A DNA stretch of 64,000 bases, taken from Geosiphon pyriformis uo1 (lineage: Eukaryota; Fungi; Glomeromycota). The stretch lies in NCBI GenBank assembly GCA_016748015.1, contig JAAOMT010000239.1, forward strand, positions 547,554-611,553, written 5' to 3'. The notes under the pieces were generated by a model. That model worked only from the letters and a program-made list of their open reading frames with translations, had not been told where the DNA came from and did no database searches. Shown here one piece after another: positions 1 through 52,995 of this stretch; positions within the stretch are counted from its first letter, which is position 1; each line of letters opens with the position of its first letter. Position numbers and translations under genes: made by a program.

Positions 1-1360
1 GTGGTTGTTGTTGCTGTTGTTGTTGGTTTGTGAAGTAGCTTTCAACTTTTTTTGTGAGTTGGTCTATCTTCTCTTCAGCTGCTGAGCTGGTTTCTCTAAT
101 TGCAAGGTTTACAAGCTTGGTGTGATTTGCTTCTTCCATTGCTATTTCATAGCTCTTTGCATGTCTAATAGCAGTTGCTAAGTCTGCTGGAGCATGTGGA
201 TGGACTTTCTTAATCAGTTTGTCTTTTAACTCTGCTATAAACTGATCCAGAATTTGAGCATCAGAATAGTAGTCATTGGTTTCCAATTGTCGGATTCGTC
301 TGAGAAGTTTGTTAAATCTTCCAAGATAGGTCATAACAGTTTTAGATGTTTCTTGTTTGATATTGTGAAAGTGGTTTCTGAGAGTGATAGAGGTATTGTT
401 GTCAGTAAATTGTTGTAAAAAAGCATCTTTGAATGCTTGCCAGTTTTCAAATGGTTTTTCTAAATTTTCAAACCATTCTTCTGCTGTTCCTTGGAGAAAA
501 TAGGGAATTGCTTTGAGCATTCTTGCTGCAATCCAACCATTTGCATCTCCTGCTTTTTGAACTTTGTCAAGCCATTCTTGAGAACTAGTATCATTGTCTT
601 CACCAGTGAATTCTGGGATTTTTGCAATGTAAGCAGTTGCCATTTCTTCTTTGTTTTCTGTAATTTCTTCTGGTTTTAATTCAGTTTCTTCACTTTCCAA
701 GCTTTCTGAATGATTACTTTCATTTTCCTGTAAGTAATCAATGATATTGGCACTTGTTGATATTGGTTTCTACTGTTGAGTAGGATTTTTAGGTGACTAA
801 AAATCTTCTAGTCTGGAGAAGCGGTTGAGTGATGAATTTGGTGTTTGTGGTTGAACAAATGAAATTGGAAATGGTGTAATAGAAAGTGGTAATTTGACAC
901 TGGTTCCTTGTTCAGGTGTTCGCAAGTGTTTGGCAGTTGTTTTTTGTAATGTTGGAGTGTTTGGAGTGGTTTTTGAGTATTGCTTCAATCTTTGTTTGCC
1001 TTTGTTGTCTGTTTCTGTCTTTGATTCAAAGTCAAAAAAGTATTTAGACTGTATTGGGTATTTTTCTTTACAATACTCAATAATGTTAAAATTAAGTTCT
1101 TGGAAGTAAATAGCAAGTGTTTCACTGTTCAGGTCTTCTGTTCCTAATTGTGAATAGTGCACTAAATTATTGTAGAGGTTGCTTTTAACTTCTGAAATGT
1201 TGTAGTTTCCAAAAAGATAATTGTTGATGCAGTTTTCAATGTATTAGTATACTGATTTCTTTACAACTTCAATTCCGTCTGAAATGTTGAATCTTTGTTT
1301 GCAGTGGGTGTAAATTGACTGGTAATACTCTAGAGTTGCTGTGTTTGGTATGGTTGCCAC
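1..1360 (-). pseudogene. Element A gag with GTG-started N-terminal extension (ATG at 643-641); premature stops
   Basis: ORF 797-1162 aligns with B ORF 10598-11422. Capsid start MATAYIAKIPEFTGE. Confidence 0.85.
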
Positions 1361-1387
1361 TTTGAATTTGTTGTTACTGTGTTATTT

Positions 1388-1403
1388 CTGTGGAAGAGCA
1401 CCA
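1388..1403 (-). promoter_or_regulatory. Primer binding site of A (TGGTGCTCTTCCACAG)
   Basis: TGG-starting motif 2 nt after the LTR end; near-identical to the B PBS. Confidence 0.8.
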
Positions 1404-1405
1404 AA

Positions 1406-2396
1406 TGTTACTGGAGGTTTTTGGTCTCTTTTCTTGAATGTTGTAACTGTCTGTTGGTTGCAAATTCACGTTTTCTAGAAGTAGTTGAACCTCCAATAAC
1501 TGAATTTATCTTCAAATTATCTCCTATAATTTGAACTGCTGGGCTTATAAGTGGAATAGCCAATTTCTTGCCAGTTACTTTATGTAGTTATGTTGTAGTA
1601 AATGTCAACTCTTTCCCAGGAATTGCTCGTCTGGAAGCTCACTAAAAATGTGTAGTTACTTTGCTGTGAAAGTCAACTCTTCTACAGGAATCTTGTCTGT
1701 AGGCTACTCTAATGATTGTAATAAGAAAAAAAAATAAAAATAAAAGAAATGTAAAAAAAATAGGATTTTATCAAGGGAAACATTTTCTATTCAGGCCTGG
1801 AATCACTAACAGTTTACTGAAATTGGTAGCTAATCAATTTCGAAATATTAGTTCGATTTTGGGGATTTTCCAAGTACAATAATTAAAGAATTTGGTTTTT
1901 CGAATTATTTGATATTTATTTCTTTTTGTGTATATAGAAACAGTTCTAAGTAATAAATCTAAAGTAAGATACATTTTCTTGAAGAGAAAAGCTTTTCTTT
2001 TATACAACTTGTTGTAGTACTAGTCTATAAACTTGCACTTTTTCTTTTTGCCCAAATTTTGGCGAACTAAAGATACATTTTGATGAACTACAAGTTATTT
2101 TGCTAAACTATTAATTAATTTGGGTAAACTATTCATAATTTCGGTGACTTTCTGTAAATTTCAGTGAATTTCTGTAAATTTCAGCAAATTTTAGAATATT
2201 ACAAAGTTCAGAGTATTGTGTAATTTGATCATTTTACTTTCTGTTATACTAATTAGATTCTTTTAATTGAATCATGATATGTGATAATTGATTAAATAAT
2301 AAATAATAATTTGAAATAATATTAATATACTAATTAATTATAGGAATTATAAGGGTAATTTCATGCTAATTAATAGCTAAAATTCTACTGGTAACA
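1406..2396 (-). repeat. 5' LTR of element A (991 bp)
   Basis: TGTTAC...GTAACA termini; homologous to B LTRs. Confidence 0.92.
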
Positions 2397-2642
2397 ACAT
2401 TTATGGAAGATATTGTACTAGGAGAATCATCAACTATCAAGCTGAACAAGCAATTGACAAAACTACGGTTTCAGGAAACTACTAATAAACTGTTACCTTT
2501 AAATCTCTGTCCATTATACAATGAACTCAATTGGAAAAACCTTTAGACAAAATACCTTCAGATTATTATTGTTACCAATTACTTTGAGCACCAAGTTATG
2601 AGTTTGTTATTCACAAAACACTCCAAAGAAACATTTGTAACA
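2397..2642 (+). repeat. 3' part of the 5' LTR of element C
   Basis: About 88% identical to 18939-19180; ends TGTAACA. Confidence 0.9.
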
Positions 2643-2644
2643 TT

Positions 2645-2661
2645 TGGTGCTCCCTGTGAGG
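2645..2661 (+). promoter_or_regulatory. Primer binding site of C (TGGTGCTCCCTGTGAGG)
   Basis: Follows the LTR end. Same motif in D, F and G. Resembles the complement of a tRNA-Met(e)/Ile 3' end; tRNA identity not established. Confidence 0.82.
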
Positions 2662-2704
2662 TATAATCCTACAGAGAACTAGCACCAATAAGAACAAACC
2701 AAAA

Positions 2705-5700
2705 GTGACAGAATCAGAAAATATAGGAACAAACCATTTAGGATTCATGAAATCCTTGTTTTAACAATACAGCCAACAATTAGAATTAAACAGTAATTAT
2801 TATCTAGCCAAATCAGTCTTCAATTTCTATGTCAATGACAAAATTACTGAATACTTAAGAGGAACAGTTAACATTGAAGCAGCAAGAAAAAACTTTTACA
2901 CAGAATTATTTTAACACACCAACTTACCAAGAAACTATAGTTTCGCACCAATAATCAGAGAAATTAACCAAACTATTGAAAGGTACACTCAACAACAATT
3001 TCCTATTACCTATGCAGATAAAGGCAAAGGAAGGTTACAAACACCAGCAGTAATACTTAAAGAGATACAACTACCAACCTGGAAGAAACAAAGAATTGAA
3101 TCCCCACCATATCCATCATATCATCACACACCTGGAAGCACTATCAATATTTCATCGGCAGGCGCATTCACACCAAACGTGACATCAACATTTGGACAAT
3201 TTCCATTCCAAAGTAAACAAAAGAAAGCGGAGTTATTAAAACCATATGGCAAATATTTCAAGAGATTTAAATTATGATCACCAACGCCATCAGGAATTCA
3301 ATTACTGCCACCTCCACCAAATTTTGGAATCTCTGATTCATGGGAAATAACAGAATCAGAAGAAAAAGAAGAAAAAGAAACTGAGGATCAAGAATTCACT
3401 TACCAGAATCTGATCACTAAAAACCCGGAATTTGAAATCCCAAATCTTTAGAACCAGTAAAATTTAAATTCAATAAATTCAAAAGTTGAAACTCTGAATA
3501 TTCAGACACCGCCAACTCAAGATAATTGAAACCCTGATTTAATTAATCAACTAAACTTATCTCCAGTAATTGTTATCAATCAACCACCAATTGATTCAAT
3601 AGCCAAACCCATCCAGCAGCCACTTCAACTACCATCTCAACAAAATCAACAACCACTTCAACAGCCACCACAATCACCCAACTTAGATCCAATAGTCTAT
3701 GCACCAATTGCGAAATTGGATAATTTCACCAGCAAAAAGAACGATGCTCAAGTATGGCTGAACAATGTGGAAAAAGCCATCACAGCCAATGGATGGAATG
3801 ACATCTGAGCAATGCAAGCCATTCCCTATTTTTTCAAAGATACTGCCAATTTATGGTATTAGAGCTTGATTAATAAACCACAAGACTTCAATGCCTTCAA
3901 AGTGGAATTTTTAAGATATTTCAGCAACAATAATAGTATCAATTACCTAGTCAATACATTTATTACTATGAAGCAAGGAAAAATAGAAGCAGTCACCACT
4001 TATCTGGAACACTTTCATAGAAATTTGCACCAGATCCAGACAATTGATGCCAACTATTTTACAGTGCCACAGATCCTTAACCAGTTTATCTGTAGCCTGC
4101 ACAGCAGCATCTTGCAACATATATGCCCATTGCATCCAGGCACCCTTCAAGATACAATTACACATGCCAGAAATTTTGAATCAGCTGAGTCTAAGGCCAA
4201 CCACGCCCAAGCTGTTAATTTAGTGATGAACGGATCATCTGAATTGGACTCCAAATTGAAACAATTCAGTAATTCAATTAATCAAAAATTAGAAGAATAC
4301 TTAGCTGACAATTGTGCAATTTATCAACCACCTCAATGATGCAGCAATTTAAGAAACTACAATCATTCCCAAAATTAAGCACATCCCTCAACATCAGCCA
4401 ATCAGCAATGGCAGCCAGAGACACATGTCTACCACAACTGTGATAAACAAGAGCACATTAGAGCAAACTGCAATGCTTATAACCACCAGCGATTGGGAAA
4501 TTAATATAGAAACCCCGATCACCAATTTCAAACTCCAAGATATCAACAAAATCAGAAACAATATTAAAACACCTACTTGTCAATGATGCAGCAGCCAATT
4601 TACCAAGCACCAGTATATCAGACTCTAGTTTATCAACTGCAGCCACCAGCAATATATCAACCACAGCCACCAGTAATATATCAACTGCAGCCACAAGTAA
4701 TCTATCAACCCCAATCAATTCAGACACCACCCCAAAATTCAGTTAATATAACATCAGGCCACTCCAGACTTAGAATTACACAAAACTGGAGATCGACGAT
4801 GGTTGTCCACCAACTGATCTCCAGTTTTTTCAACTCACCATCAGGATTGCATTTTCGAAATTTGGGTACCAGTGCCACCCAAAACCCAAATTCTCAGAAC
4901 TATTTAAGTCTTCTGGTTACCCCAAAAGATGCCACCACCAACAATTCGGGACCCAACCAACAACAAACACTTACCAGCAACATTTCACCAACAACTGTCA
5001 CCAATGACGAATTGCTTGCAGCCATCTTTCTCTTTGACTTGGAAGAAACAATCAAAATTCTATTATTCAGTGGAGCAGCTTTGGAAGAAAAGCCAATCAC
5101 CACCATGTATACAGATGCCAAAATCAATGGCCATGCCATCAAACTAATCTTGGATAGTGGATCAGCTGGCAGCATCATAACAAGACAACTCATGGATCAG
5201 TTAGGTTGCTGAGTTGACCAAACTGCCAATGCAAGGATCATCACAGCTGATGGAGCAACCAAAACTCCAATAGGTGAAATAGACAACCTACCTATCAAAA
5301 TTAATAGCATCACAGTACCCATCAAAGTCTTTGTAATAGAAGCCACACAATACCAGGCTTTGGTGGGTAACAATTGGTTGTCAAAAACCCATGCTACCCT
5401 TGATTGGACCACCTAAGAACTACAATTAATCTTTGGTGGTCAGCATACTTAAACACCAGCCATTTGTGGCCACTTTAAGCCAAGCAATATTCAACTGCTC
5501 ATCAAGTTCGAAAAAGAAACAAGGAAACCGACCTGGGAAGCCTACCAAGTCTCATGGACTGATGAAGACCACAACAAGCTATCACTGATACTTTCTTGGG
5601 ACAATAAGGGAAAAGGGAAGGAAAACAAGAAACTTATCTGGAAAACCAACCAAAACTGAGAAATGGATAATGACCAAGACAAACCAGCCAACTGGAAGTG

Positions 5701-8700
5701 GGAAGAAACTGATAAGGGAAAGAAGAAAGAAGAAAAAACCACTCTCATCAACAGCACTTAGAGTTCAGACATGTACACTTTATCACCACCAACCAATTAT
5801 CATTGACCAAAATTGGAATGCATTAATTGTGGCAAGAAATTGTTAACAATGAGTGCATGCTGTGGCGACAATGAGGAATACTCCACGGCCACAAGATTTT
5901 ACTGCCGCCCATGTATCATAGAACACTTTGAATGACCAAAACAACAAGGAAAGTGGGATAACCAACCATGTCTCACATATGGAACTATTCTACCAGACAA
6001 AGAAATATGGAGTGACATTCCTGGGCATGGAGGAACGTGTAATAAGACATGTCAGTACACTATACTAATAAATAATTGGATAAGCAAAGAAACACCAATT
6101 GATGACACCTGGAAATGAGCATTGCAATGATTGGAAGGATATTCCCACGACAAAGACGAACTATGGAGAATGGCGTATGCAAAAGTAGAAGGCGTGACAA
6201 CCAGCAAACTACTAGAGATAAAAAATAATCCTTTATCACTTCCCGAACTCAAATATGAGCAAACTTTTGACATCTTTGGCAACATTGAGGATGACCTCGA
6301 AGAATTTTATAAACATTATCAGCATTTGGCACCTACTAGGAAAGAACAAGAGCAATGTTTAGAGCAGTTGAATACTCGATTATGTCAACATTGCTTAATC
6401 CCATGTGACTTTCAGTATTGTAATGAGTGTGATCTCATCTACAATCCACCACCACGCATGATCTACACAATCCCAAAGGAAAAGGAACCAATCAGCAGTT
6501 GCACATCAGAATCAGAATTACTGTTTGATCCCGATTCAAACTCCAACAACGATGATAACAAAAACACTGGTTCCAGCTCTGTCCAATATGATGAGAGAAA
6601 TAACAATGATTCCAACTCAGATTTAAACTCCGATCCAAATTATGGACAATATATTGCACTTCCTGACCTCACCAAGGAACAGGAACTTAAATGGTTCAAC
6701 AATAATAATGAAGGTATTATGTCAGAATGCATGCATGATACTGATGCTGGGTTTGATTTGAGGTATTCAGGAAAAAATGCCATCAAATTGGAACCACATT
6801 CACACATCTGCCTGGATTTGAAAATAGCACTGGAAATTCTGACAACAACAATGGTTCAATTAGCATTTAGGAATAGTTTAATAAAAAGAGGAATTAATAT
6901 AAGAGGAGGAATAATTGATGCTGGATATGTGGAAAATATTATTACTATGCTACAAAATGACTCAGAAAAGGCTTATATAATAGAGCCCAACAAAAAAATA
7001 GCACAGACAATATTTCTGCCTCTGGTTAGAGTAGCTCAGTTAGTATCAGTGGGAAAGAGGGAGGAATTAGGAATAACAGTAAGAGGGATACAGAGATTCG
7101 GATCGACAGGTAAAGTAGATGTACCAGTCAATATGGCAGAAAAAGAAATTGTTGACCAAGAGAAAATTATCTCAACAGGTCAAACAATTTTCATTCCACC
7201 ATATGGCCAGTACATAATAGGAATAAAGCAAGAAGTAAAAGAACAAAATCAGATTTTTGAAGCAAAACCAACCCTTTGTGAATCAGGAAAGATTGAACTT
7301 ATCAATCTCTATATACCAGCCAAAGATTACAGCCACATCAAAATTCCCATCTACAATAACACAGGAAATGTCATAGTAATACCAGCCAGAATCACTATTG
7401 GATACTTAAGCACTGAAATAGAAGATTAATCACCAAGCACCATTCCGGACTTTCTACAGCTTTGTGGATATGTCAATATCACATCACAAATGATATATGG
7501 ATAAAGCAAATGTTATTTGCTCCAACCAGAACAATTAGAACAAATAAACATGAGAAACTTAGATCCACTCCAATGTATGCAACTTAAGATGTTGCTCAAC
7601 AATTTCAACAACATCTTTGTCAGCAAAAACAAGTTTGGCCAAACGGACATCATTCAGCATTAGATCAAGACTAGAGATGCAATGCCAATTAAACAAAGAG
7701 TATACAGAGTACTACCAGCTAGTCACAAGATTATCCATTAAGAGATAAATTGAATGTTTGACAACAGGCTAATTTAGCCATCAATAAATCCATGGTTATC
7801 ACCAGTGGTATTCATCTGGAAAAAGAATAGGAAAATCCGCTTTTGTGTGGATTATAGAAAACTCAATAGAGTAACTCATGGAGATAGCTACCTCACTCCA
7901 CGGATCTAAGAATTATTTGATGCTTTTAGTGGAAACAAATAGTTTTCAACATTAAACCTGGACAATAGTTACTGGCAAGTAGCCATGGACCCAGCTGACA
8001 AAGAAAAGACAGCATTTATCACCAGAAAAGAGAATTTTGAATTTGAAGTAATGCCATTTGGCTTAACCAATGCATCAGCCACTTTCCAATAGCTAATGAA
8101 AATTGTTTATATGGGCTTATTATGAAAATCAGTAGTTGTATACTTAGACAACACCAATGTATTCTCAAAAACATTTGATGATCATCTTCATCATCTTCAA
8201 CAAGTGTTCAAAAGACTAAAAAGAGCAGGACTAAAGTTAAATACAACAAAGTGCTTTTTTGGCAAGACAGAACTAAAATTCTTGGGACACATAGTCAGCA
8301 AAGATGGCATTAAAACAGATCCAGAGAAAATAGAGATAGTAAAAAACTTTCTAATGCCAACCAATATGACAGAACTGAAATCATTTTTAAGATTTGCCAG
8401 CTATTATCAACATTTTATCAAGAACCTTTCCAAGATAGTGCAGCCACTCAACCAACTGCAAATCAAAAATACAAAATATGAATGAACAGAAAGTCAACAA
8501 GAAGCTTTTGATATTCTGAAAAGAAAGCTTATTCAAACTTCAGTACTGATCTATCCAGATCACAGCAAACCATTTATCATTACTACTAATGCATCTGGCC
8601 AAGCATTGAGAGCAGTACTATCTCAGAGAGGACCAAACGGCAGAGAACATCCAGTAGCATATGCCAGCAGAGATTTAACACCAGCTGAAAAGAACTATGG

Positions 8701-8944
8701 AACACCGGAACAAGAACACTTAGCAATATACTGAGCAGTTATGAAATGAAAAAAATACTTGAGCCAGAAGTTTGAAGTATACACAGATCACAAAGAATTA
8801 ACATCATTTCAAAAACAAAAATTTGAAGATGGAAGACAGTCAAGATGAAAAATGGCACTTGCACCATATAATTATACTATACATTATAAAAAGGGAAAAA
8901 ACAATGGAAATGCTGACAGTTTGTTACAAATGAGACAAATCTAA
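2705..8944 (+). pseudogene. Element C polyprotein: N-terminal extension-Gag-aspartic protease-Cys-rich domain-dUTPase-RT-RNase H (one frame, many nonsense substitutions)
   Basis: ORF fragments at 3866, 4577, 6131 and 8204 share a frame. Motifs LILDSGS, RFCVDYR, MPFGL, YLDN, FLGH and RNase H NAD. Confidence 0.9.
6690..7110 (+). other. dut: Trimeric dUTPase domain within the element C polyprotein
   Basis: Motifs DAGFDL, GIIDAGY, IAQ, RG.xRFGSTG. Confidence 0.9.
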
Positions 8945-9006
8945 GAACATTTCAACCCAAAAATATAACAAAACCAGGACAATACCAATGAAAAATATAA
9001 CAAAAG

Positions 9007-9573
9007 ATGAACATACAAAAATATTAACAACTGCTACATTATATAAACACTCAACAGTTCAAGGAGAATTTATCTCAAACAGAATGAAAGAATATCAAAC
9101 AACAATCAAAATATTTTATCACTTACCAAAATATACTTTATCAGAAAAATAGAAGAAATCTAGAGCAACCAACCAGAGTAATTACAGAGCCAGAAAAAGA
9201 GACAATATTATTCAACATGCACTCAAATCCAACAGCAGAACACTTTTACAAAGAAGTAACTATGGAAAGAACCAGAAAAAGATACTATTGACCATTAATA
9301 TATCCAGACATCATCCAAAATTGTGATGCTTGTCAGCGAAGAGAAGGTATAAAACCCAGTGAACCATTAAGACCAATCAAAGTGGGACAACCATTCAACC
9401 ATATTGGAATTGATTTAGTCAGACCATTAACAATTACCAGCGGAAAAAACAGATACATAGCAGTAACCATAGACTATCTCACTAAATGGCCAGAGACAAA
9501 AGCAATTCAAAGAGCGGATGCAGAATCCATTGCCAAATTCATTCATCAAGATTTAATTTGTTGACATGGATGT
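9007..9573 (+). pseudogene. Element C integrase, N-terminal part (separate ORF with own ATG), interrupted by B
   Basis: HHCC zinc motif and GIDLV...DYLTKWPE core start. Confidence 0.88.
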
Positions 9574-10552
9574 TGTTACCAGATGAAATTAGAGATATTA
9601 TTTAGTATGAAACTATCTTATAATTCTTATCATTAATTAGCATATATTATCATTTCAAATTATCACTTATAACATTAGCAAAAATGTCCGAAATTATCAT
9701 TAATTAATAACCCAAATTGTACACAACACAAATGTAACCTAATTGCGATGATCAATCATGCAATACCCCGAACTATGTAACATTCAGAAGTTCGCCAAAA
9801 TTTGTAGAAATTCGCTGAAATAATTGATAGTTCACCGAAATATCTAATAGTTCGCCAAAATAACTTGTAGTTTGCCGAAATGTATCTTTAGTTCAGCGAA
9901 ATTGTAGAAAATAGCAAAGTTCAAGTTCATAGAATAGTGTTACAACAAGTTGTATAAAAGAAGAGCTTCTCTCTCCAAGAAAATGTATCTTACCTTAGAT
10001 TTATCTCTTAAAACTGTTCCTATATACACAAAAAAAAATAAATATCAAATAATTCGAAAAACCAAATTCTTTAATTATTGTACTTGAAAAATTCCCAAAA
10101 CCCAACTAACATTTCGAAATTGATTAGCTATCAATTTCAGTAAACTGTTAGTGACTCCAGGCCTGGATAGAAAACGTTTCTCTTGACAAAATTCTATTTT
10201 TTTTACATTTCTTTTAGTTTTCTTTTCTTTTCTTATTACAATTATTAGGGTAGCCTACAGACGAGATTCCTGTAGAAGAGTTGACTTTCACAGCAAAGTA
10301 ACTACACATTTTTAGTGAGCTTCCAGACGAACAATTTCTAGGAAAGAGTTGACATTTACTACAACATAACTACATAAAGTAACTGGCAAGGAATTGGCTA
10401 TTCCACTCATAAGCCCAGCAAGTTCAAATTATAGGAGATAATTTGAAGATAAATTCAGTTACTAGAGGTTCAACCACATTCAGAAAACGTGAATTCACAG
10501 CAAATAAGTATCAACAACATTACAGAAAAGAGACCAAAAACCTTCGATAACA
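9574..10552 (+). repeat. 5' LTR of element B
   Basis: Direct repeat of 15811-16789 with TG...CA termini. Confidence 0.95.
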
Positions 10553-10554
10553 TT

Positions 10555-10570
10555 TGGTGCTCTCCCACGG
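10555..10570 (+). promoter_or_regulatory. Primer binding site of B (TGGTGCTCTCCCACGG)
   Basis: 2 nt after the LTR end. Confidence 0.82.
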
Positions 10571-10597
10571 GAATAACACAGCAAAAACAAATTCAAA

Positions 10598-13500
10598 GTG
10601 GCGACCACACCAGTTGCAACAACTCTAGAGTATTACCAATCAATTTACACCCACTGCAAGCAAAGATTCAACATTCCAGACGGAATTGAAGTTGTCAAGA
10701 AATCAGTATACCAATACATTGAAAACCGCATCAACAATTATCTTTTTGGAAATTACAATATCTCAGAAGTCAGAAGCAACCTTTACAATAATTTAGTACA
10801 CTATTCACAGTTGGGAACTGAAGACCTTAATAGTGAAACACTTGCCACTTACTTTTACGAACTTAATTTTAACATTATCAAATACTGTGAAAAAACATAT
10901 CTAGTGCAATCTCAATACACTATTGATTTTGAATCAGAAACAGAAACAAGCAACAAAAACAAATTAAAGCAATATTCAAGAACCACCCCAAATACTCCAA
11001 CACTACCAAAAACAATTGCCAAACATTTACAAACACCTGAACAAGGAACCAGCTCAAAACTTCCACTTACTATCACACCTTTTCCAGCCTCACTTGTACA
11101 AGCACAAACACCTAATTCACACTTGAATCGATTTGCAAGACCAGAAGATTTTACATCACTCAGAAGTCCCACCAGACAACAAGAACCCCTTCAAACTAGT
11201 TCCAATCTCCTTGATTTTCTAGCTGAAAATCAAAGTGAACACTCTGAGACAGCAGCAAACAAAGAAAACAACTCTAAAATAACCAAAGAAGAATCAATAG
11301 ACAGTGAAAACAAAATGACAACATACATCGCAAAAATTCCTGAATTCAATGGAGAAGATATTGAGACCAGTCCCCAAGAATGGCTTGACCAAGTTACTAA
11401 AGCTGGAGATGCAAATGGATGAAACACTGCCAGAATGTTAAGAACAATTCCCTACTTTCTTAAAGGAACAGCAGAAGAATGGTTTAAAAACCTTGCCACC
11501 CCATTCAATGATTGGAATGCTTTCAAAGCAGCCTTCCTTGAACAGTTCACTGACAATAATACCTCTATCACTCTTCGCAATCATTTTTGAAATATCAAAC
11601 AAGAACCCTCCGAATCTGTTATGACTTATATTGGGAAATTCAACAAACTTCTCAGATGGATTCGCCAACTCGAGACAAACGATTATTATTTCGATGCTCA
11701 AATCTTGGATCAATTTATTGCTGGTCTAAAAGATAAACTAATTAAAAAGGTTTGCCCACATGTGCCAGAAGATTTAAACTCTGCAATACAGTATGTGAAA
11801 AGATACGAAATGGCCATAGAAGAAGCCAATCATACAAAACTTGTAAATTTGGCAATTGGAGAACCCAGTTCAGCAGCTGAGGAAAAAATTGACCAACTCA
11901 CAAAGAAGGTCAAAAACTATTTTACTAACCAACAACAACAACAACCCCAAAGATATCAACCACCTCAAAGACAAAATCAAAATAACTTTGCACCACTTTC
12001 CAATAACCAGCCCCAGAATTGCCATTACTGTGGAATCTCTGGCCACTGGAAAAGAGATTGCAGAAAGCTGCAACGAGACCAACAAAATAGGGGTAATCAA
12101 CATTACTCTCTACCACAGCAATCTTATTATTAACCATTACCACCAGCTTACTATCCACCAAGACCCCAATACCAAAATAACTATTATCAGCCTGCCCCAC
12201 AACCAATCCAACAGCAATACCAACAACCACCCACACAACATTATCAAGTACCTGCTCAAAGACTGATTACACAAAATCAATTCACACCACAAAACCAATA
12301 CCAAGTAAACAACATTAGAATCAGTTCAAACAACCAATTGGTTCCCCGAAATACCACTCAACCAAGATCCAACCATTACTACACTCAACCCAGTTATTTA
12401 ACAATGCCAGAAGAACAGGATTTTCACCATACTGCACCCTCGGAAGGTAAAGCTACAGCACAACAACAACAAAACCCTTCTTATAACCACATCACTATTC
12501 CACCAGTCCGAATTGCTGAAAATGCCAATCTCTCTGATATCTTTCCTTTTGAATTTGAAGCAAATAAATCACCATTCTTGCTTAGCAATGCAACAGCTAA
12601 TGAGCAAAAAGCCATCACTGCAATGTACGCAGAAGCTGAAGTAGAAGGAAAGCCAATTTGCTTGATCTTAGACAGTGGATCTGCCGGAAGCATTATTACC
12701 TACCAGTTAATGCAACAATTGAAAAGAAATGTCGACCGACCAGCTCAAACAGTAATCGTCACTGCTGATGGCATGAAAAAAACTCCAGTAGGAGAAATTG
12801 ACAATTTTCCATTCACTCTTGATGGAATCACCATTTCAGTCAAAGTTCTTATAATAGACGCACCCCAGTACCAAGCTCTCATCGGAAATGATTGGCTTCA
12901 AAAAGCCAATGCTAATCTGAATTGGGAAACACAAGAGTTAACAATCTCCTACCAAGGACAACATGCCCGAGTATCTGCCATTTGTGGTACATTCAACAAA
13001 CGCTCTGAAAAAGCCCTGGCTTTTGAATTTGAACCAAAAGAAGAAAAACCAATAATCGAAACATTCATGGCTCTTGGATCAACATCCAACTGGGCCGATG
13101 AAACAGAACAAGAACATTTTACTCCACACACTAAACCCAAAATCTCTGGATGGAATATACCTTACTCAAAACCTGAACCAAGAAAACAATGCCCTTATAT
13201 TCCCCTTAAATGTAAGGACTGTCACAAGAAACTATCGTCAATGGGAGCCTGCATTTCACCTGAAGAAGAATATGAGAATCATACTTGTTATTACTGCAAG
13301 GCTTGCCACAGAGAGCGATGGGGCCATCTAATAAAAAGGAGCGGAAAATAGGACAACACCCCTTGTTTGACTTGTGGAGATATGCTACCAGAAGAATGCA
13401 ATTGGATTGATATAGCAATGAAAGGAGGCATCTGCGATCAGACCTGCCAATATGCTTTATCAATTTCAGAAAAAGTAAAAAGAGGAACACTCTTTAATGC

Positions 13501-15260
13501 AGCATACAACAGTGCTCTCAACAAACTTTATCATTACCCTTATGATGCCGAGATGATTTTCGACTTAGCAATGGCATTAATTAATGGAACTACCAAAGAA
13601 GATATTCGTCAAATGAAGAAAGCAGAATACATTGAATACACTATAGAATTAGCTGGATTCAATTACGAAGATGAAGTAGAAGTCTATCACCAAATTGCAA
13701 GTTACATCTACCCGACCCAAGAAGCTCAAATTCAACGATTAGAGCAAATGAACATTAGGCTATGTGAAGAATGCATTATGCCTTGCGATGAACAATGGTG
13801 TCCTGAATGCTATGCTCTTAGTATCCCCTTGCCCAGCAAAAATGATGAGAATGAAATTGAATTTGGAGAACCTGAAGAAATGGAAGAAATTGAAACAACA
13901 CCCATCTACCTTATCAAAAATCAGCCTGTCTTACAACTTAAATACTTCAACAACAATGAACAAGGAATAAAACTTGAAAAAGCACACGAAATTAATGCTG
14001 GATATGACCTAAGATATCCAGGCAAGGATACTCTTGTTCTCAAACCCAAATCTCTCACAAAAATCAACCTCAAAATTGCACTTGAAATTCCGCCAGGAGT
14101 CATGATTTAAATCGTCTCTCGGTCCTCTCTAGCAAGCAAAAGAATTAATGTCAGAGGAGGAATAATCGATGCTGGATACACTGAAGACATAACAGTGATG
14201 CTTCAAAATGAAACTGACAAACTATTCAAGATTGAACATGCTGAAAAAATTGCCCAAGCTATTTACCTACCCTTAATCAACATTTCGGGTTTGCAACTAG
14301 TCAATCAAAGAGAACAATTAGGAAAAAGCGATAGAGGAACCCAAGGCTTTGGTTCAACTGGACAATTCACAGTTCCAGTTAATATAGCTCTTAATATACA
14401 GAACAAATCCCACCAAATTCTCAGACTTCCATAACCGATTACCATTTCACCCTTTGGAGAACATCCAGAAATTTACACTTGCATAAAGCCAACAACCACA
14501 CAACAAATTTTTGAGTCCAATGAACAAGTCTGCTTGGAACATAATATTTTGATCCCAAACATTTATATTCCAGAAGGAACAAAGAAAGTCTGAGTTACTT
14601 TTTACAACCCCAATAATTACCCCATAATTTTATTAAATAATTTAGAAATTGGAGTTATTCACAGTAATATATTTCAACAAGAATTACCCCAAACAGTCCC
14701 CAATTTCCCTGAAATTATTGGACATTCACTACCAAAAATCAACTTAAATCCCAGCTCCGAAAACTACCATGTTGTCATGAGAAAACTATCTCGAATTAAC
14801 ATGGGACAACTTGAACCACAACAACAGACCCAGCTCAAAGAGCTAATTGCAGAATTTGCTGATATCTTCGCCGAAAACAACAATGACTTAGGAAGAACTG
14901 ATTTGGTTCAACACCAAATCTATACAGGAGATGCCAAACCAAGGTGACAACAAGTTTACCGAGTTGCTCCAGAAAGTCACCAATTTATCCGAAAAGAAGT
15001 ACAATGGATGCTTAACAATGGGCTTATTCAACCATCAATGAGCCCATGGGCCTCATCTGTGGTTCTAGTTAAGAAAAAAAATGGAAAGATACGATTTTGT
15101 GTTGATTACCGACAACTTAACAGTGTCACTATTGGGGATGCCTACCCTCTTCTCCGAATTGATGACATGTTGGATGCCCTTGGAAAGTCCAAATACTTTT
15201 CAACATTAGATTTAGAGAGTGGATACTGACAAGTTGCTATGGATCCCAAAGACCGCCCCA
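10598..15260 (+). pseudogene. Element B polyprotein: GTG extension-Gag (CCHC knuckle)-PR-Cys-rich-dUTPase-RT N-terminus, truncated by deletion
   Basis: ORFs at 10598, 11621, 12338, 13367, 14195 and 15008 share a frame. Motifs CHYCGISGHWKRDC, LILDSGS, AGYDL, RGTQGFGSTG, RFCVDYR. Confidence 0.92.
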
Positions 15261-15842
15261 AATTCACGAAAATATCACCTGTATAAAAAGAAAACAAGAA
15301 GTTATACTGGAATTCACCTGCCAGAACTTTTAAAGCTTGCTTTAAGAGAAAACCTAATGTTCACTCCAATTAGTATTCCACCAAATGCTACAATTCAACA
15401 AAAACTTCAACTGTGTCTCAATGAGGAAAACACTGAATATCCTCCAATCTATAGATATTTTCACATTGGAAAAACACTTTATAAATAGAAACTGGAACTT
15501 ATAACAACAAACCTCACAAAAGAAGCTATTCAGAAACAACTCCACAATGAATTCAAGACAACAGCTGGATCAACAAACAGTTGCTACAGGCTTAGAGCTG
15601 CTCTTAGATTTTATGACCTATTCCACACCTGTGAAAACGTACTACAAAACCCAATTTTTCAACTTTTGAAGATTCAATACATTGAAAAGCTCACAAAACT
15701 GAAATTTTAACAATTTTCAGACCAAATTTCTTCAATAATTTTGGATTATTATCTGGAAATAACAGACAGTACTTGGATTTCGATGGAGCTCAGTCTTAAG
15801 GAGGAGGTTATGTTACCAGACGAAATTAGAGATATCATTTAG
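15261..15842 (+). pseudogene. Element B ORF3 remnant (unknown helical protein), running into the 3' LTR
   Basis: YFHIGKTL...AALRFYDLF...IEKLTKLKF pattern shared with the other ORF3s. Confidence 0.65.
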
Positions 15843-16789
15843 CATGAAACTATCTTATAATTCCTATCATTAATTAGCATATATTATCGTTTCAAATTAT
15901 TACTTATGACATTAGCAAAAATGTCTGAAATTATCATTAATTAATAACCCAAATTGTACACAACACAAATGTAACCTAATTGCGATGATCAATCATGCAA
16001 TACCCCGAACTATGTAACATTCAGAAGTTCGCCAAAATTTGTAGAAATCCACCGAAATAATTGATAGTTCACTGAAATATCTAATAGTTTGCCAAAATAA
16101 CTTGTAGTTCGCCGAAATGTATCTTTAGTTCAGCGAAATTGTAGAAAATAGCAAAGTTCAAGTTCATAGAATAGTGTTACAACAAGTTGTATAAAAAAAG
16201 AGCTTCTTTCTCCAAGAAAATGTATCTTACCTTAGATTTATCTCTTAAAACCGTTCCTATATACACAAAAAAAAAAATATATCAAATAATTCGAAAAACC
16301 AAATTCTTTAATTATTGTACTTGGAAAATTCCCAAAACCCAACTAACATTTCAAAATTGATTAGCTACCAATTTCAGTAAACTGTTAGTGACTCCAGGCC
16401 TGGATAGAAAACGTTTCTCTTGACAAAATTCTATTTTTTTTACATTTCTTTTAGTTTCCTTTTCTTTTCTTATTACAATTATTAGGGTAGCCTACAGACG
16501 AGATTTCTGTAGAAGAGTTGACTTTCACAGCAAAGTAACTACACATTTTTAGTGAGCTTCCAGACAAACAATTTCTGGAAAAGAGTTGACGTTTACTACA
16601 ATGTAACTACATAAAGTAACTGGCAAGGAATTGGCCATTCCACTCATAAGCCCAGCAAGTTCAAATTATAGGAGATAATTTGAAGATAAATTCAGTTACT
16701 GGAGGTTCAACCACATCCAGAAAACGTGAATTCACAGCAAATAAGTATCAACAACATTACAGAAAAAAGACCAAAAACCTCCAGTAACA
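15811..16789 (+). repeat. 3' LTR of element B, preceded by PPT AAGGAGGAGG (15798-15807)
   Basis: Direct repeat of 9574-10552. Confidence 0.95.
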
Positions 16790-17555
16790 ATGTCCAAAAG
16801 AATTATTATCAGACCAAGGAACTCATTTTGTGAACAGAACATTAACAGAATTGAGCCAAAGATTCGGAATTAAGAGACCATTATTATCACCATACCATCC
16901 ACAAACCAATAGATTAATCAAAAGATTCAACAGAACATTGTGTGAAGCAATAGCTAAGTTCAGCCAAAAAAACCAGAACAATTAGAATTTGTTGATATTA
17001 TCAGTACTATTTGCTTATCGGACAATAAAGCAAGATACTACATAAGCAACACTATTTGAATTAGTATATGGTAGAACAGCAACACCACCAGTGGAAATAA
17101 AAGTCAGCACATACCCAACCGAACTAATAACAGAAAAGAATTTCAAAAACACATTGTTGAGAAGAACATATGACTTAATGGAAACATTAGAAAACAAATG
17201 ACAAAGAACAGCTGATAATATACAAAAGTCACAAAAAAAACAAAAAAAAAGACATGATAACCAACTACCAGATAAACCAGTTGAATTCAAGATTGGAGAC
17301 AAAATACTACTACATTGTACCAAAGTGGAAAAACAATAGAATGGAAAATTTGACCCTAAATGGAACAGACCATTTCACATAGAAGAAATTCTAGGAAATA
17401 AAGCTTACAAATTAAGATTAAATAACAAAATCTTGACCAACGCAGCACATAGAGATTGACTGAAATCATATCACCATATAGCATCATCAGCCACCAGTAA
17501 TATTTTACAATTAGGAGTACAAAGAATACTAGTCCAACCAAATAAAATTCCATAA
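16790..17555 (+). pseudogene. Element C integrase, C-terminal part
   Basis: SDQGTHF, PYHPQTN and GPY/F-like region; no chromodomain recognised. Confidence 0.88.
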
Positions 17556-17596
17556 GATCTGGAATTAATCATTATTATTAACAACAACACATCCAA

Positions 17597-18283
17597 TTGA
17601 TCAACAAAAGAATATATAAGAACATGGTCAATGCAACAGAAGAGATCAAAAAAATGGAAATTATGGACAATATCCATTCACTAGCCCAACAAATTTTTCA
17701 ATTAATCCAACACCAGGAAATAGAAATTACAATCAATCAACAAACCATTCATTACAAAAATATGGCAAAAATACCACAAAACAAAGCACAGAAAAAACTT
17801 GAAAATATTGTTGACAAGATTATAACCAAGATAAAATTGGCCATAAAAGAACAACAAATAATTAGATTATACCAAGAACTTATCAGAGAAACTTGGATTT
17901 GGTGGACACAACAATTTCCGAAAAACTATTGTCATTTTCACTTGAGACAACACGTAAATATCCAGAATTTGTACACTGACAAAACAAAATGGTTATTTGA
18001 TACAACAATACTAAGACAACTAGAACAATTTGTGGGAAAAAACAATCTAACCACACAAGTTCGAGTTATTTACTGGCTATATATGGGATTTCAAGACTGA
18101 CCAAAAATTTTACTTAACACAGCAATGGATACAATTACGAGTAATCAATTGAGAAAAATGACCAATGCCCAATTTAAAAAACTACAAACTAAAATAACAC
18201 AAGTAATACTTGAAAAAAAAGTTCAAGAAATAATTCAAGAAGGAGAATTAAAGAAATTAGATTTCGATGGAGCTCAATATTAA
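17597..18283 (+). pseudogene. Element C ORF3 (unknown protein, one internal TGA), ending LDFDGAQY
   Basis: Clear homology to E ORF3 at 34888-35328. Confidence 0.78.
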
Positions 18284-18296
18284 AAGGAAGAAATAA

Positions 18297-19180
18297 TGTT
18301 ACTCATAGAATATAAGAAATATAGTATTATTAGTCAATAAATATTAGCCAATCAGATATAGACATAGTAAATGTGGAATTCCAAGATTTCTCTCAAAGGA
18401 ATTGCAGAATTCCAGGAATTTCAGAATTCTCCAACAAAAAATCGCAGAATTCCAGAATTCCAGAATTCCTCTCATCAGAAATTGCAGGATTTCAGGAATT
18501 CCAAGATTCCTGTTACAAAAAATTAAGGAATTGAGGAATCTTAAATATGTATATATAGCAGTAGCATTAAAAGCAGAAAAGACAGAATTGACACTAAGAA
18601 CTCTTAGCTTAGTTACCACAATCCTCAAATAAATAACTATTCACTATATCAAATTCATTCTTCACTATCAACACTTCATGTTGATAGTAATTGATACTTA
18701 ACTATACTAGAACAATAGCTCTTGATCACGGCTATTGATGGGATACTAACTTGTAAATTATCTTGGCTTATTTCTTATTTTTTTTTTTTATCTTTTCTTT
18801 ATTTTCTTTGTTGTCTACTAACTTGATTAAAAAATTTATTCTTGGAACACTTATGGAGGAATAAAACTTAATTAAACAATACTTACTCTTGGAGAACTTA
18901 CAGAGGAACTGACGTCAGGAAACAGCACTGGTATATACTTATGGAGGATATCATACTAGGAAAATCATCAACCATTAAGCTAAGCAAGCAATTGATGAAA
19001 CTACAGTTTCAGAAAACTATTAATAAACTGTTATCTTTGAATCTTTGTCTATTATACAAAGAACTCAATTGGAAAAACCTTCAGACAAAATACCTTCAGA
19101 TTATCATTGTTACCAATCACTTTGAGCACCAAGTTATGGGTTTGTTATTTACATGACACCCCAAAAAAACATCTGTAACA
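18297..19180 (+). repeat. 3' LTR of element C (884 bp) with GGAATTCCA/CAGGATTC tandem array
   Basis: TGTTACTC...TGTAACA termini; purine tract at 18282-18293; U3 shared with the D LTR. Confidence 0.93.
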
Positions 19181-27074: not shown

Positions 27075-27614
27075 TGTTACGGTTTAAAAATTTAGTAAAA
27101 AGAATCATAAAAATAATACAAACTATTCAATCATAATATAGCACAGTAATAATCTTAGAAAGGTAATGATTAACATAGTAGCAAACACCATCTCGCAATA
27201 GTGATAAGCACCAGTTCACAATAGCAGCCAACACCAACTGGTGATAGCAGCAAACACCAGATTGAAATATCAAAAAAAGAAAGTATTACAATGTGTTTTC
27301 TCGTAGAACTACAAACATGTATATATACAATAGTTTTAATATTGGGAAATAATCAATCAAGTAATAAAAATCATAACTTATCAAGCAATAGATCCAATTT
27401 TATCCAACAAACTCCACTTTAAATCATACTTTCAAATTAAATATCCCAAGAAACCTTTAAAATTAAAAAGAAATGAAAAAGAATATTTAAAACTAAACTA
27501 TCACAACCCAAAGTATTAAGAAACTTACTTGTATTATTTATTGAATGAAACTATCATTCATTAACTGAATCCTTTGGAAGAATAATCCTTGATCAAGATT
27601 ATTCACATTGTTAC
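27075..27614 (+). repeat. 5' LTR of E, truncated (U5 and PBS missing)
   Basis: About 97% identical to 34405-34851 and 35349-35452, then jumps into coding sequence. Confidence 0.88.
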
Positions 27615-30600
27615 CTGTCTCTTATAATCCATCGAGAAATTGAGCAATACACCAACAAAAATTTTCCAATATCCACAGGAAACACTAGGGAATATGCCAA
27701 CAAAACCAAAGAAAATTTAGAAACTAATCAGGAAAGTAACCAGCAAAAACTAGAAACACCAGCTCAAACGCCAAAGAAAACTGTCACTCAATCAATAAAA
27801 AAACAACGTATTTATTCACTAGAAGATAAATCATACCATTTTTCACCAGAAAATAAGATACAAATTCCATTAGAAGCTGCATCATTATTAACATCAACTC
27901 CACAAATGCCAAGAACTCTTAGTTATACTGATAAAATTAAACAACATAACTGGGGAGACATACCAATTACAGGAGGATATTCATTACTATTCCAAAACCC
28001 TTTTTTTCAGCCAAAATTTAGAACAGGGTTTGAAAACCATGAAGAGGAGTCTGAATCGGAATCTGAAAAAGAGACCAGTAAAAAAACAATCACAAGACCA
28101 GTCACTGGAACAAACAGCCAGTCCAGAAACCAAGAAACTTGTGATCAAGAGAAAGAACTGGATATAAGGGAAGCCACCTTTAGGAATGCTCAAGGAAATA
28201 TCATCTCACCTCCTCTTAGACCAATAAACCCACCAGCAGAAAATGGCAACGAAATGACCACATCATACATTGCAAGACTAACAGATTTCTCAGGAGAGGA
28301 AGAAGAAATGGACATGCACACATGGCTCAGAGAAGCACAAAAAGCCATCCAGGCAAATAACTGGAATGACCAAAAAGCAATTCAAACATTATCTTTCTTC
28401 CTGAAAGGCACAGACGACTTGTGGTATCAAAGCCTGGAAACAAAACCCACGAGCTTTGCCAAATTTAAAAATGCACTTCTGGAGTATTTTAGTGACCCAA
28501 ACGCCATAATCCAACTACAGAACAAATTCAATACTATCAAGCAAAATACTGGTGAAACTGTCACCCAATACCTTGTTCGATTCAATCAAATTCGCCATCA
28601 GATTAAAGCAATTAAACAAGGATACTACACTGATTCTCAAGTTTTAAATCAGTTTATTAGAGGATTAAAAAGCAGCATTTTAAAAAGAGTATGCCCTGCC
28701 CACCCTAATTCCTTACCAGAAGCCATTACACTCGCCAGAGCCTTTGAATCAGCTGAGAAAGAAGCTAACCATAGTCAAATAGTTAACATGGTAATGGAGG
28801 AAAATAAGACAGAAACATTAGAGAAAAGAGTAATGCGATTAGAAGAGGAACTCTCTAAGAAAATAGAAAGTTACCTCATCCCGAATCTGAGAAAAAATAC
28901 ATACCAACCACCTCAAAGACGCAGCCAGGAAGTTAGTAACAGTTGAAATAATCACTCGTCGCACCAGGAATTCAGAACAGAAACACGCACCTGCCATTTT
29001 TGCAAATGCGTAGGACATTTGATTAGTCAATGTTGAACGCGAATGATGCAGAAAGCATGCGAAAATAATTACTACATGCCACCCCAAATGCCCAGAAACC
29101 AGTACATGCCAATACCATGCCAATATCTCACCATGTATTAAAATCAAAGAGCTTACCAGCAACAGCCCATGATAGCCAACCTGAATTGGTGTCCTGAGGC
29201 CCAAAATCAGCCCATGTGGAACCAGAACGTGTTAGTTTAGAGGAATCCAAACCGCGCCGGAACCAATCAGCAAACCAATCCAAACTACCAAAATTATCAA
29301 CAAACTTACCTTAATATACTGGAAAATCTGATTATCGGAAACAATGATGGTAGAAACATAAACAGAACCAAAAATTCCTCTAAATTGAGCCAGACAATAC
29401 CACCAGCAGTTGCCACCGAAGATAGCAGCCTCGCAGCTATTTTTCTTTTTGAATTAGAGGAAAACAAGGCTATGTTCAGTGGAGCAGCATTGGATGAAAA
29501 ACGCCCAATCACTACTATGTATACGGAAGCCACTGTAAACAATACCCCAATCAAACTTATCTTAGACAGTGGATCCACTGCAAGCATCATAACGCTTCAA
29601 CTAGTAAACCAACTGGGTTTCAAAGTTAATTGTGCCATGACATCCCAAATTATAACAGCCGATGGAAGTACAAAGCTGTCTCATGGCGAAATCGACTCAT
29701 TCTCTTTCGAAATTAATGGTATAGTAATACCTACAAAAGTATTAGTAATGGATGCTACACAATATCAAGCATTAGTAGAGAATAACTGGTTAACAAAAGC
29801 CAACGCCACCCTAGACTGGACCACCCAAGAGCTTCTGATCAATTATAATGGCCACCAGGCCAAAATTCCAGCCACTTGTGGCCACTTCCAAAAACCCAGC
29901 ACCAACCAAAGACCTATCTTCGAATTTGAGGAAAATCCAGCACTACCAGCCATTGAAATCTATTAGCTCTCTTGGGCTGATGACCAAAAAACAGAACTAC
30001 CAGCCATACCAACGTGGACCAGTGAAGAAAGATCCGAATGGAACCAGGTAAGTTCACAAAGAAACTACCAGCGACGCAGACCATAGCTAGAATGCTCGGT
30101 TTGTAAGAAGAAACTCTTGTCTATGACTGCGTGCAGCACACCAGACAAAAACCCAAGAAACCCCACCCACTACTATTGTAACTGTTGTAATAAAAAAAAA
30201 TACGGTTATCCAGAAAGACACGGAAAATGGGATGAGGAACCGTGTCTCGCTTGTGGAGAACCATTACCAAGAGGATGTAACTGGAATAACATACCAGACA
30301 AAGGAGGAACGTGTGACGCAACTTGCCAATACACGATCCTCATCTGTGACTGGGTAAGAAAAAGAATGCCGTTCGAAGCAGCATTCAACAGAGTGTTAAA
30401 AAGATTACAGCACTACCCACATGACGAGGACGAGCTGTACAACACCACACAAACCAAAGTAAGAGGAGGAACTGCCGAAGAAATACAATGTTGGAAAGAG
30501 TCAGCCGAAGTAGCTGACGAAATCGCCAGCTACAATATGTTCGACCCAGTGGACAAATTCCAGGACTACTACCAACAACTATGCCCCACTTAACAAGAGC

Positions 30601-32891: not shown

Positions 32892-32920
32892 AAATCACCA
32901 ACCTACCCGCCACAACAACA

Positions 32921-34142
32921 ATGAACAACCACCTTTACAAAAACCTCAGCCAATACTTGGAAACACTACAAATAGACAAAAAAATGCCAGTAAAAGAGCT
33001 AATTAAGCTCCAAAAATTAGCAAAACACTATTTCATCCAAAATCACATACTTTATTACCAGAATCAACAAAATTCAGATAATTCATTAAGAGTTATAACC
33101 ACAGATAAAAAAGAAACTATCTTATTTAACATGCACTCAGATATTTATTTAGGCCACTTTGGAAAAACAGCAACCATCCAACATGCAACTAGCCATTACT
33201 ATTGGCCAAAAATAAGTTCAGACATAATCCAATACATAAGAAATTGTGACCCATGCCAATGAAGAAGAGGAACAAAAACAATGGAATTATTAAGACCAAT
33301 AAAAGTTGGACAGCCATTTGACAGAATTGGAATTGATTTAGTTGGACCCTTACCAATAACAACAAGAAACAACCATTATATTGCAGTAGTCATGGACTAT
33401 CTCACCAAATGGCCAGAAACTAGAGCTATTAAAACAGCTGATGCTATTTCCATAGCTCAATTCATACATGAAGACTTAATTTGCTGACATGGATGTTCAC
33501 AAGAATTGCTATCAGATCAAGGCACACACTTTGTAAACAGCACCTTAAAAGAACTTAGCCAAAAATTTGGAATCAAGTGACCACTGTCATCACCATACCA
33601 CCCTCAAACAAATGGATTAATTGAAAGATTTAATCGCACATTATGCGAATCACTGGCGAAAATTAGTAACGAAAATGAAAAAGAATGGGATTTGTTTATA
33701 CCAGCAGTACTACTAGTATATAGAACAGTAAAACAAGATACTACACAATTTACACCGTTTGAACTAGTTTATGGAAGAAAAGCCACATTACCAGTTGAAC
33801 TTACTATCCCAACTTATCCAAGTGACACTATCATGGAAGCAACATTCCAGGAAACACTACTTAGAAGAACATACGAATTAATGGGAACTTTAGAAAACAA
33901 AAGAAAAAAAACAGCACAAAATATTGAACAATCACAAGAACAACAAAAAGTGAGATATGATAACCAGTTACCAGATAATATAATTAGCTACAAAATTGGA
34001 GATAAAGTATTGTTGCATTGTACAAAAATGGAAAAACAGTGGAGTGGAAAATTTGATCACAAGTGGGATGAACCATTTTATATTCACAAAATACTTGGAA
34101 ATGGAGCATACAAGCTAAGACTAGATGATAAAATATTAAGAA
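32921..34142 (+). pseudogene. Element E integrase (separate ORF with own ATG)
   Basis: Motifs H...GHFG...CDPCQ, GIDLVGPL, SDQG, ERFNR. Confidence 0.9.
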
Positions 34143-34404
34143 NNNNNNNNNNNNNNNNNNNNTACATTCCATTCAAAAACAGTTTACAGAATTTTCAAAG
34201 CATTTGAAAACTGTCACAAATTATTGTTGGACCCAATTATGAACATAATAACAACCAATAGTATTGGATGACTTACCAATTCACAATTTCAAAAATTACA
34301 ACAACAAATTAATAACACAGTATTGAACCACTATAGTAACTTAGAATTTAATGAAGAAATTAACTTTGATTTTGATGGAGCTCAATCTTGAAAGGAGGTG
34401 ATAA

Positions 34405-45997: not shown

Positions 45998-46003
45998 TAA
46001 AAG

Positions 46004-46020
46004 TGGTGCTTCCTGTGAGG
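46004..46020 (+). promoter_or_regulatory. Primer binding site of F (TGGTGCTTCCTGTGAGG)
   Basis: Same type as the C and D PBS; 6 nt after the LTR. Confidence 0.82.
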
Positions 46021-46069
46021 TTGTCAAAATTCACTTATTCCTTTATTGTATGAGTGATTACTCATATCT

Positions 46070-51610: not shown

Positions 51611-51615
51611 CCTGA

Positions 51616-52991: not shown

Positions 52992-52995
52992 ATAT

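Follow-up and report, generated by a model that had tools for sequence, protein, structure and literature searches.

A separately encoded integrase in Ty3/Gypsy-type elements of Geosiphon pyriformis and its candidate routes of expression

Fusion is the usual route by which an integrase enters a retroelement particle. Reviews, in the sections available, describe the Ty3/Gypsy integrase as made within Pol. A stretch of 64,000 nucleotides from the fungus Geosiphon pyriformis uo1 (GenBank assembly GCA_016748015.1, contig JAAOMT010000239.1, positions 547,554 to 611,553 of the forward strand; hereafter the window) carries Ty3/Gypsy-type elements with another organization: the integrase (IN) lies outside Pol, behind the stop codon of the reverse transcriptase-RNase H (RT-RH) frame and under its own ATG, and a third open reading frame (ORF3) follows.

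Yeast Ty3 resembles these elements in its long terminal repeats (LTRs), target-site duplication (TSD), primer-binding site (PBS), polypurine tract (PPT) and domain order, and provides the closest solved structure for the RT-RH of a relative, L074. The elements here differ from Ty3 in the integrase outside Pol with its own AUG, in an ORF3 of a new family and in a long N-terminal extension of Gag. A dUTPase between protease (PR) and RT is described for Postia PosPlaTy3-5, Tuber Tmt1 and bdelloid Juno, Vesta and TelKA (PMC2864245, PMC5408684, in the parts available). These share the dUTPase position and a non-env ORF3, and Juno also has an extra zinc knuckle nearby; their integrase, however, is part of pol, the products of their ORF3s are exonucleases, esterases or membrane proteins, and the elements here have a 210-residue Cys-rich domain ahead of the dUTPase. 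Junctions of the AUGA, UAAUG, UAGnnAUG and AUG-n-stop types, described in the accessible text as termination-reinitiation forms, are shared with fungal victoriviruses, hypovirus CHV1, SART1 and LINE-1, the 63-nt spacer of LINE-1 being a precedent for a longer junction (PMC5972666, PMC3542737). Those systems are RNA viruses or non-LTR elements, whereas here the upstream frame reaches about 2000 codons, the product is an integrase and the case is known from sequence. In murine leukemia virus, an in-frame near-cognate CUG yields an extended Gag and the AUG a short form; here the probable start codon is GUG, and the extension spans about 240-330 codons with a predicted four-helix head. Caulimoviruses with TAV likewise translate consecutive reading frames from a reverse-transcribed RNA and tolerate varied spacer sequence (both from the parts of PMC3542737 available), but they have no integrase, and no similarity was found between ORF3 and TAV.

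In the literature searched, with most subscription papers and supplements outside its reach, no separate integrase reading frame is described for Ty3/Gypsy. Lokiretroviruses were considered as a precedent and are not one, according to the available part of PMC7947760. The dUTPase and extra ORF3s are already known, and Repbase or a curated library for arbuscular mycorrhizal fungi could already hold the layout. The split layout explains many lone 'integrases' and 'hypothetical proteins' in gene models of these fungi, and it raises the questions of how a fungal ribosome reaches a second and third gene and how a free integrase is packaged. It offers natural junction variants (overlaps, short spacers and structured RNA) and adds a conserved small protein family, confidently modelled and with no known relative, together with a probable GUG start.

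An integrase gene outside Pol

Self-comparison and translation resolve the window into a nest of decayed repeats with six LTR pieces, A to F (Table 1). The junction survives in three elements, C, D and E, and in each a stop is followed by an ATG, with 62, 29 and 61 nt, respectively, between them; the RH stop lies a few codons past the last RH motif, and the integrase ATG is in another frame. The Gag-Pol frame of C contains 36 stops in 2080 codons, and decay was therefore tested as the source of the split. Family variants were taken from 2438 contigs of one run, probably of the same genome and thus paralogues rather than independent support. Among these contigs the C stop at 8942-8944 shows no variant at 4% or above. 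In the same contigs, a sense codon replaces an integrase-internal stop of C (9025) in 68%, and an ATG within the spacer (8988) is ACG in 64% of the depth; this ATG is a decay product.

The best 80 of 580 metagenome loci found (L numbers) were compared. RH lies upstream on the contig in 49, an ATG is present with no RH on the contig in 21, and 10 are uninformative. The integrase is split from RH in 49 of the 49 informative loci and fused in none, with most frames otherwise open. A search with the D integrase returns 1358 proteins of similar length, the named ones being from Rhizophagus; within the best 120 of these, the first zinc-finger His is matched by pattern in 98, and 81 of the 98 begin 61-76 residues before it. 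Among the best 120 longer proteins, RT-RH-IN fusions above 37% identity are limited to three fungal gene models. Viral contigs yielded 5 distant integrases only. The split integrase is a real and widespread departure from the standard Ty3/Gypsy layout, and the copies do not collapse to an ordinary gag-pol, the outcome that the earlier note on this DNA had set against its proposal. A stand-alone integrase DNA transposon of the Ginger/GingerRoot type is ruled out by the position of the integrase between RT-RH and PPT-LTR.

Some loci vary around this plan. Contigs L011, L017, L026, L027, L033, L051, L061, L064, L069, L074 and L080 run on as ORF3-LTR-PBS-gag, a permuted order such as collapsed repeats or circles with one LTR would give. 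In one subclade, Gag-PR and RT are separated by an in-frame stop at a common position (L014:2884, L015:872, L017:2500, L031:3292, L047:1957, L053:904), which suggests readthrough or a fourth cistron. A Cys/His-containing Pol tail of 235-343 residues follows RH in L024, L026, L041, L055, L061 and L069; the tail of L026, the only one searched, has no Pfam match.

Gag extension, ORF3 and accessory sequences

In element B, the 1329 nt from just past the TATA region to the capsid AUG (11315) contain no ATG, with 12.5 expected (0/2000), and 239 codons are open from a GTG at 10598. This GTG is preceded by three A in A, B, C and F. In the 90 family copies that align, out of 120, the start site is Val in 68 and Met in 17, the latter consistent with decay of G to A and with the bias of gene finders, while the capsid AUG is the sole majority-Met column of the alignment. 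The 120 matches listed for the B leader are all hypothetical proteins of G. pyriformis, at 54-91% identity. Between C and F, the proportions of synonymous and nonsynonymous differences (pS and pN) over 198 codons of the extension are 0.52 and 0.19, similar to the protease (0.64 and 0.16), and the contrast weakens when the frame is shifted. Homology links the leaders of B and C (E 6e-4). From these comparisons, the B and C/F families carry an AUG-free Gag extension under purifying selection, with GUG as the probable start codon; no AUG exon was found in the B 5' LTR, and look-ups for the GUG leader returned nothing. Residues 7-100 of the B extension are modelled as a four-helix domain (mean predicted local distance difference test score, pLDDT, 80), for which Foldseek gives no match and the best Z score, 7.1, is to a designed protein; a matrix-like fold is one possibility.

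Among 19 related Gag starts, most extensions open with an early AUG and a different, His/Cys-bearing head. This conserved N-terminal domain occurs in many relatives (e.g. L008:299-700, L024:301-800, L040:3569-4100) and has no Pfam match. In L080, about 660 nt lack an ATG; the Gag head there (5086-5706, 207 codons without Met) has a CTG whose context is strong, probably a separate case of non-AUG initiation.

A reading frame of at least 90 codons follows the integrase within 260 nt in 32 of 50 scorable loci, and 27 of these belong to one family, represented by 612 sequences at E 0.001. The D and B ORF3s match the family profile and C is linked through D (36% identity over 135 residues); the score of the E ORF3 is not above reversed controls. 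The ORF3 model is compact and all helical (pLDDT 92.8). In 26 relatives and the four window ORF3s, no 19-residue segment exceeds a hydropathy of 1.6 (maximum 1.32), so an errantivirus-like env membrane glycoprotein is rejected on both the missing transmembrane segment and the model. The earlier note's term 'virus-like' therefore fits the likely translation strategy and not ORF3. No common Pfam family is found in 25 members, and Foldseek returns no match to the fold from PDB or BFVD (best VIA Z 5.0; Atlas scores below 0.9). In L020 the ORF3 slot holds a NUDIX hydrolase (1876-2889), and in L008 a protein ending in a helix-turn-helix (6522-6944).

The Cys-rich domain and dUTPase are present in B, C and D, the former also in F, and both are absent from all 80 metagenome loci; the Cys-rich domain has no Pfam match. 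The several uncharacterised proteins that had been proposed thus stand as the extension, the Cys-rich domain and ORF3, all of them conserved. A 16-nt motif ahead of the PPT is shared by B, C, D and E and by 9 aligned loci. Different ORF3s read it in different frames, and it lies at the end of the unrelated ORF3 of L008 as well, which marks it as a nucleotide signal. The motif was thought to be a conserved hairpin; the sequence is conserved, and the hairpin is rejected, as folding in B, C, D and E is no better than in shuffles (z +0.33 to +1.31).

These features fall into two tiers. The split integrase and ORF3 are widely shared; the GUG extension, Cys-rich domain and dUTPase are confined to the B/A and C/F families and partly D, and occur in none of the 80 loci. 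The single plan attributed to the window elements accordingly holds for the layout and not for uniformity. Element C bears out the whole order: LTR remnant, PBS, GTG, Gag-PR-Cys-dUTPase-RT-RH, stop, ATG integrase, ORF3, motif, PPT and LTR. Element B retains the 5' modules and has lost the 3' half of RT, RH and integrase by deletion. Element D follows the plan from Gag onward; at its 5' junction neither PBS nor GTG is seen, and D carries N gaps. Element E has the split integrase and a third reading frame, with neither dUTPase nor Cys-rich domain matched and no GUG-led extension; its gag and pol are in different frames and its leader holds an in-frame ATG. The E gag/pol boundary (47540-47600) resembles a decayed -1 frameshift site, and the same frame relation occurs in L008 and L040.

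Junctions and candidate routes to the second and third genes

The RH-IN spacers of the 49 loci range from -20 to several hundred nt, and their relative frames are distributed 21/18/10; since all three occur, a single readthrough or frameshift rule is excluded. Stop and start overlap or abut at 16 of the 49 junctions, as AUGA (5), UAAUG (2), UAGnnAUG (1) or AUG-n-stop with n = 2, 5, 8 or 14 (8, one of them, L058, re-read by eye), and such junctions recur across four parts of the integrase tree. In that tree, C, D and L001 stand together, with A/C-rich spacers of 24-62 nt. The 26 spacers of 10-170 nt contain 5 ATGs, against 23.8 in shuffles (0/2000 as low), and a purine occupies position -3 at 63 of 70 integrase starts and 273 of 443 internal ATGs. 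Neither AG nor GT holds a constant position near the starts, the final 20 nt are AG-free in 30 of 70, and the D and L001 spacers contain no AG.

In 23 of the 80 loci, of which 20 form the training set, the integrase AUG has a two-helix RNA element shortly upstream, limited to one integrase subclade and L050. Across 20 sequences, 93.3% of cells are paired, with two-sided changes at 8 of 12 pairs, against 31-54% in slid controls; the pairing was drawn by eye, from sequences that are related to one another. Rfam gives no match at the 10 loci searched, and on the window one sub-threshold chance match only; the element is absent from the window. In the examples L022:1116-1175, L026:4450-4509 and L044:6-65, it ends a few nucleotides before the AUG, with a possible 2-bp pseudoknot.

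In the favoured explanation, integrase and ORF3, separate AUG-led genes behind Gag-Pol, would be reached on the same RNA by a restart after the RH stop, and Gag of the B and C/F families would start partly at GUG. As a whole it is rated slightly better than even, and reinitiation after the RH stop, as the best mechanism for the integrase, at roughly even. Scanning ribosomes would start partly at GUG, giving a long Gag-Pol with the four-helix head, and the remainder at the AUG just before the capsid, giving a short form. A small share would start again 29-62 nt further on, at the AUG of the integrase; this would replace proteolytic release of the integrase and set its low dose. The unfused integrase would enter the particle non-covalently, through binding to RNA or RT. 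The ORF3 product would be made either after a further restart or on a subgenomic RNA, and would most likely be a soluble helical helper that binds nucleic acid or protein. A dUTPase serves to exclude uracil from cDNA, and the activity predicted here would do the same. A bolder version, a widespread polycistronic fungal lineage with GUG/AUG leaky scanning, serial restarts behind a frame of up to 2000 codons, ORF3 as restart helper or integrase-packaging adaptor, structured RNA that positions the ribosome in one subclade and an integrase never fused, is unlikely; if true, the integrase would be packaged without ever being joined to Gag or Pol.

Several observations weigh against the favoured explanation. 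A subgenomic mRNA would account just as well for the scarcity of AUG in the spacers and for the favourable start context, and the rule for choosing the start Met favoured M-D/E/N/S/Q, which inflates the count of G at +4. The window junctions, at 29-62 nt, are wider than the closely coupled junctions of most viral examples. The spacers of L015, L017 and L021 span 192-365 nt and hold 2-7 ATGs, and simple rescanning could not carry a ribosome across them; four further long values are probably premature stops in the post-RH tail, clearly so in L022 and L049. Extra ORF3s of LTR elements typically come from spliced RNAs, according to the accessible part of PMC5408684. Splicing into the leader would be possible at a YAG that precedes the GUG by 16 nt in A and B and by 22 nt in C and F. 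In the Rhizophagus gene model P0126, RH and integrase are fused through a 172-residue linker, and this may be a true exception.

Production of integrase and ORF3 each from its own subgenomic mRNA, arising at an internal promoter or through splicing from the 5' LTR, as is known for env or foamy-virus Pol, is possible, if doubtful. It would account for the AUG-poor spacers with strong starts, the long ATG-containing spacers, the ORF3 spacers of up to 201 nt and the T-rich spacers, sharing a short motif, of E and the L003 group, and the spliced ORF3s offer a precedent. Against it, an acceptor is not conserved, the D and L001 spacers having none, and the recurrent stop/start overlaps would be purposeless on separate RNAs. 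Internal initiation or a processed RNA end guided by spacer structure, as in an internal ribosome entry site or a nuclease-blocking fold, with signals differing by subclade, is improbable. The covarying two-helix element speaks for it, a comparison biased in its favour by drawing the structure from the same sequences; the C, D and E spacers are unstructured, and the window lacks the element. That an ordinary gag-pol was split by decay or by noise in the assembly, or that a small intron rejoins RH and integrase, is largely refuted and deserves hardly any weight. The stop-rich window copies and the three fused gene models favour it, but the metagenome loci are split in mostly open frames, the C stop is fixed in its family, and neither donor nor acceptor is conserved. 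In two of the three fused models the end of RH and the start of the integrase are missing, as if a predicted intron had skipped the stop; an invented intron would have this effect.

Lineage and contents of the window

The elements have TG..CA LTRs, 4-bp TSDs in the two elements that could be scored (ATGT in B, ATAT in E), PBS, PPT and the order PR-RT-RH-IN of Ty3/Gypsy. The L074 RT-RH matches solved structures of Ty3 (E 6e-92), caulimovirid type (6e-70) and foamy virus (2e-37), and Ty3_capsid is matched in B and D by Pfam. The integrase inside Pol that marks canonical Metaviridae is lacking throughout the three window elements and 49 loci, and the elements are a derived variant of Ty3/Gypsy, not a canonical member. 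Chromoviruses are set aside: C, E and D, the last with its 3' end in a gap, yield no chromodomain match, and the precomputed domain annotations of 120 relatives include none.

In the RT-RH tree, C, D and E group with support 98/86. Trees were built from search hits only. FastTree (140 rows) places all 33 split RT-RH sequences and the three fungal models in one clade (0.977). Of two quick IQ-TREE runs, one (58 rows, two flagged rows dropped) recovers the split clade at 97 and the other (60 rows) does not (31); nor does a careful IQ-TREE search, which leaves the deep nodes open (2 changes). A single origin of the split is allowed by these trees. The earlier note's distinct lineage with its own expression strategy is upheld in that the copies keep apart from gag-pol; as a lineage it is plausible, on an unstable deep branch.

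Table 1 Features of the window (positions from its first letter)
Feature	Position	Strand	Remarks
Element A, B-family copy	1..2396	-	LTR, PBS, GTG leader, gag; cut at window edge
Element C, two parts around B	2401-9573 + 16794-19180	+
C 5' LTR, 3' remnant	2401..2642	+	truncated by inverted element A; 88% identity with 18939-19180
C PBS	2645..2662	+	TGGTGCT type
C Gag-Pol frame	2705..8944	+	GTG-led extension (GTG 2705), capsid, then Pol domains, single frame
C PR	5114-5383	+
C Cys-rich region	about 5807-6439	+
C dUTPase	6734-7108	+
C RT	7817-8296	+
C RH	8486-8869	+	Gag-Pol stop 8942-8944
C intercistronic spacer	8945..9006	+	62 nt, A/C-rich, unstructured
C integrase, N-terminal part	9007..9573	+	own ATG 9007, different frame; Integrase_H2C2 E 3e-9
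C integrase, core and C-terminal part	16794..17555	+	rve, SH3_Tf2-1 weak; stop 17553-17555
C ORF3	17624..18283	+	own ATG 17624, 68 nt past integrase stop
C pre-PPT motif and PPT	18262..18296	+
C 3' LTR	18297..19180	+
Element B, nested in C integrase	9574-16789	+	TSD ATGT
B 5' LTR	9574..10552	+
B Gag extension, GTG-led, AUG-free	10598..11314	+	239 codons, no stop
B Gag (AUG-led), PR, Cys-rich, dUTPase, truncated RT	11315..15286	+
B ORF3 remnant (frameshifted) and pre-PPT motif	15273..15795	+	ORF3 profile E 1e-4 to 1e-5, small databases
B 3' LTR	15811..16789	+	96.2% identity with B 5' LTR
Element D, N gaps	27075..34851	+	Gag-PR-Cys-dUTPase-RT-RH, then integrase
D RH-frame stop; integrase ATG	32889-32891; 32921	+
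D ORF3 piece	34873-35325	+
Element E	45356..52991	+	TSD ATAT
E RH stop; integrase ATG	50288-50290; 50352	+
E ORF3 ATG	51712	+	ORF3 profile score not above reversed controls
Element F, C-family 5' part	59683..64000	+	GTG 60630, leader without Met

A PBS is present in A, B, C, E and F and a PPT in B, C, D and E. The largely unrelated LTRs noticed earlier are confirmed by BLAST, in which those of B, C, D and E find no match in one another, A matches B, and F matches C. An open frame in the C LTR is rejected, the frame not being preserved in F. LTR pairs are 88-98% identical, their differences almost all transitions (119 transitions, 6 transversions). The tracts 40000-45300 and 52990-59600 drop to 11-21% GC, which together with the transition bias suggests strong C-to-T decay. 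The insertion sites 2397-2400, 9570-9573 and 52992-52995 read ATGT twice (one inverted) and ATAT, three cases that only hint at a target preference.

LTR elements make up 41.2% of the G. pyriformis genome, according to the part of PMC11952901 available. LINE-like (long interspersed nuclear element-like) sequences with endonuclease, RT and RNase H lie at 19409-22388, 25426-27074 and 35760-40800 (minus), and element D appears inserted into one of them. A host protein-kinase gene stands amid the repeats at 23237-24807.

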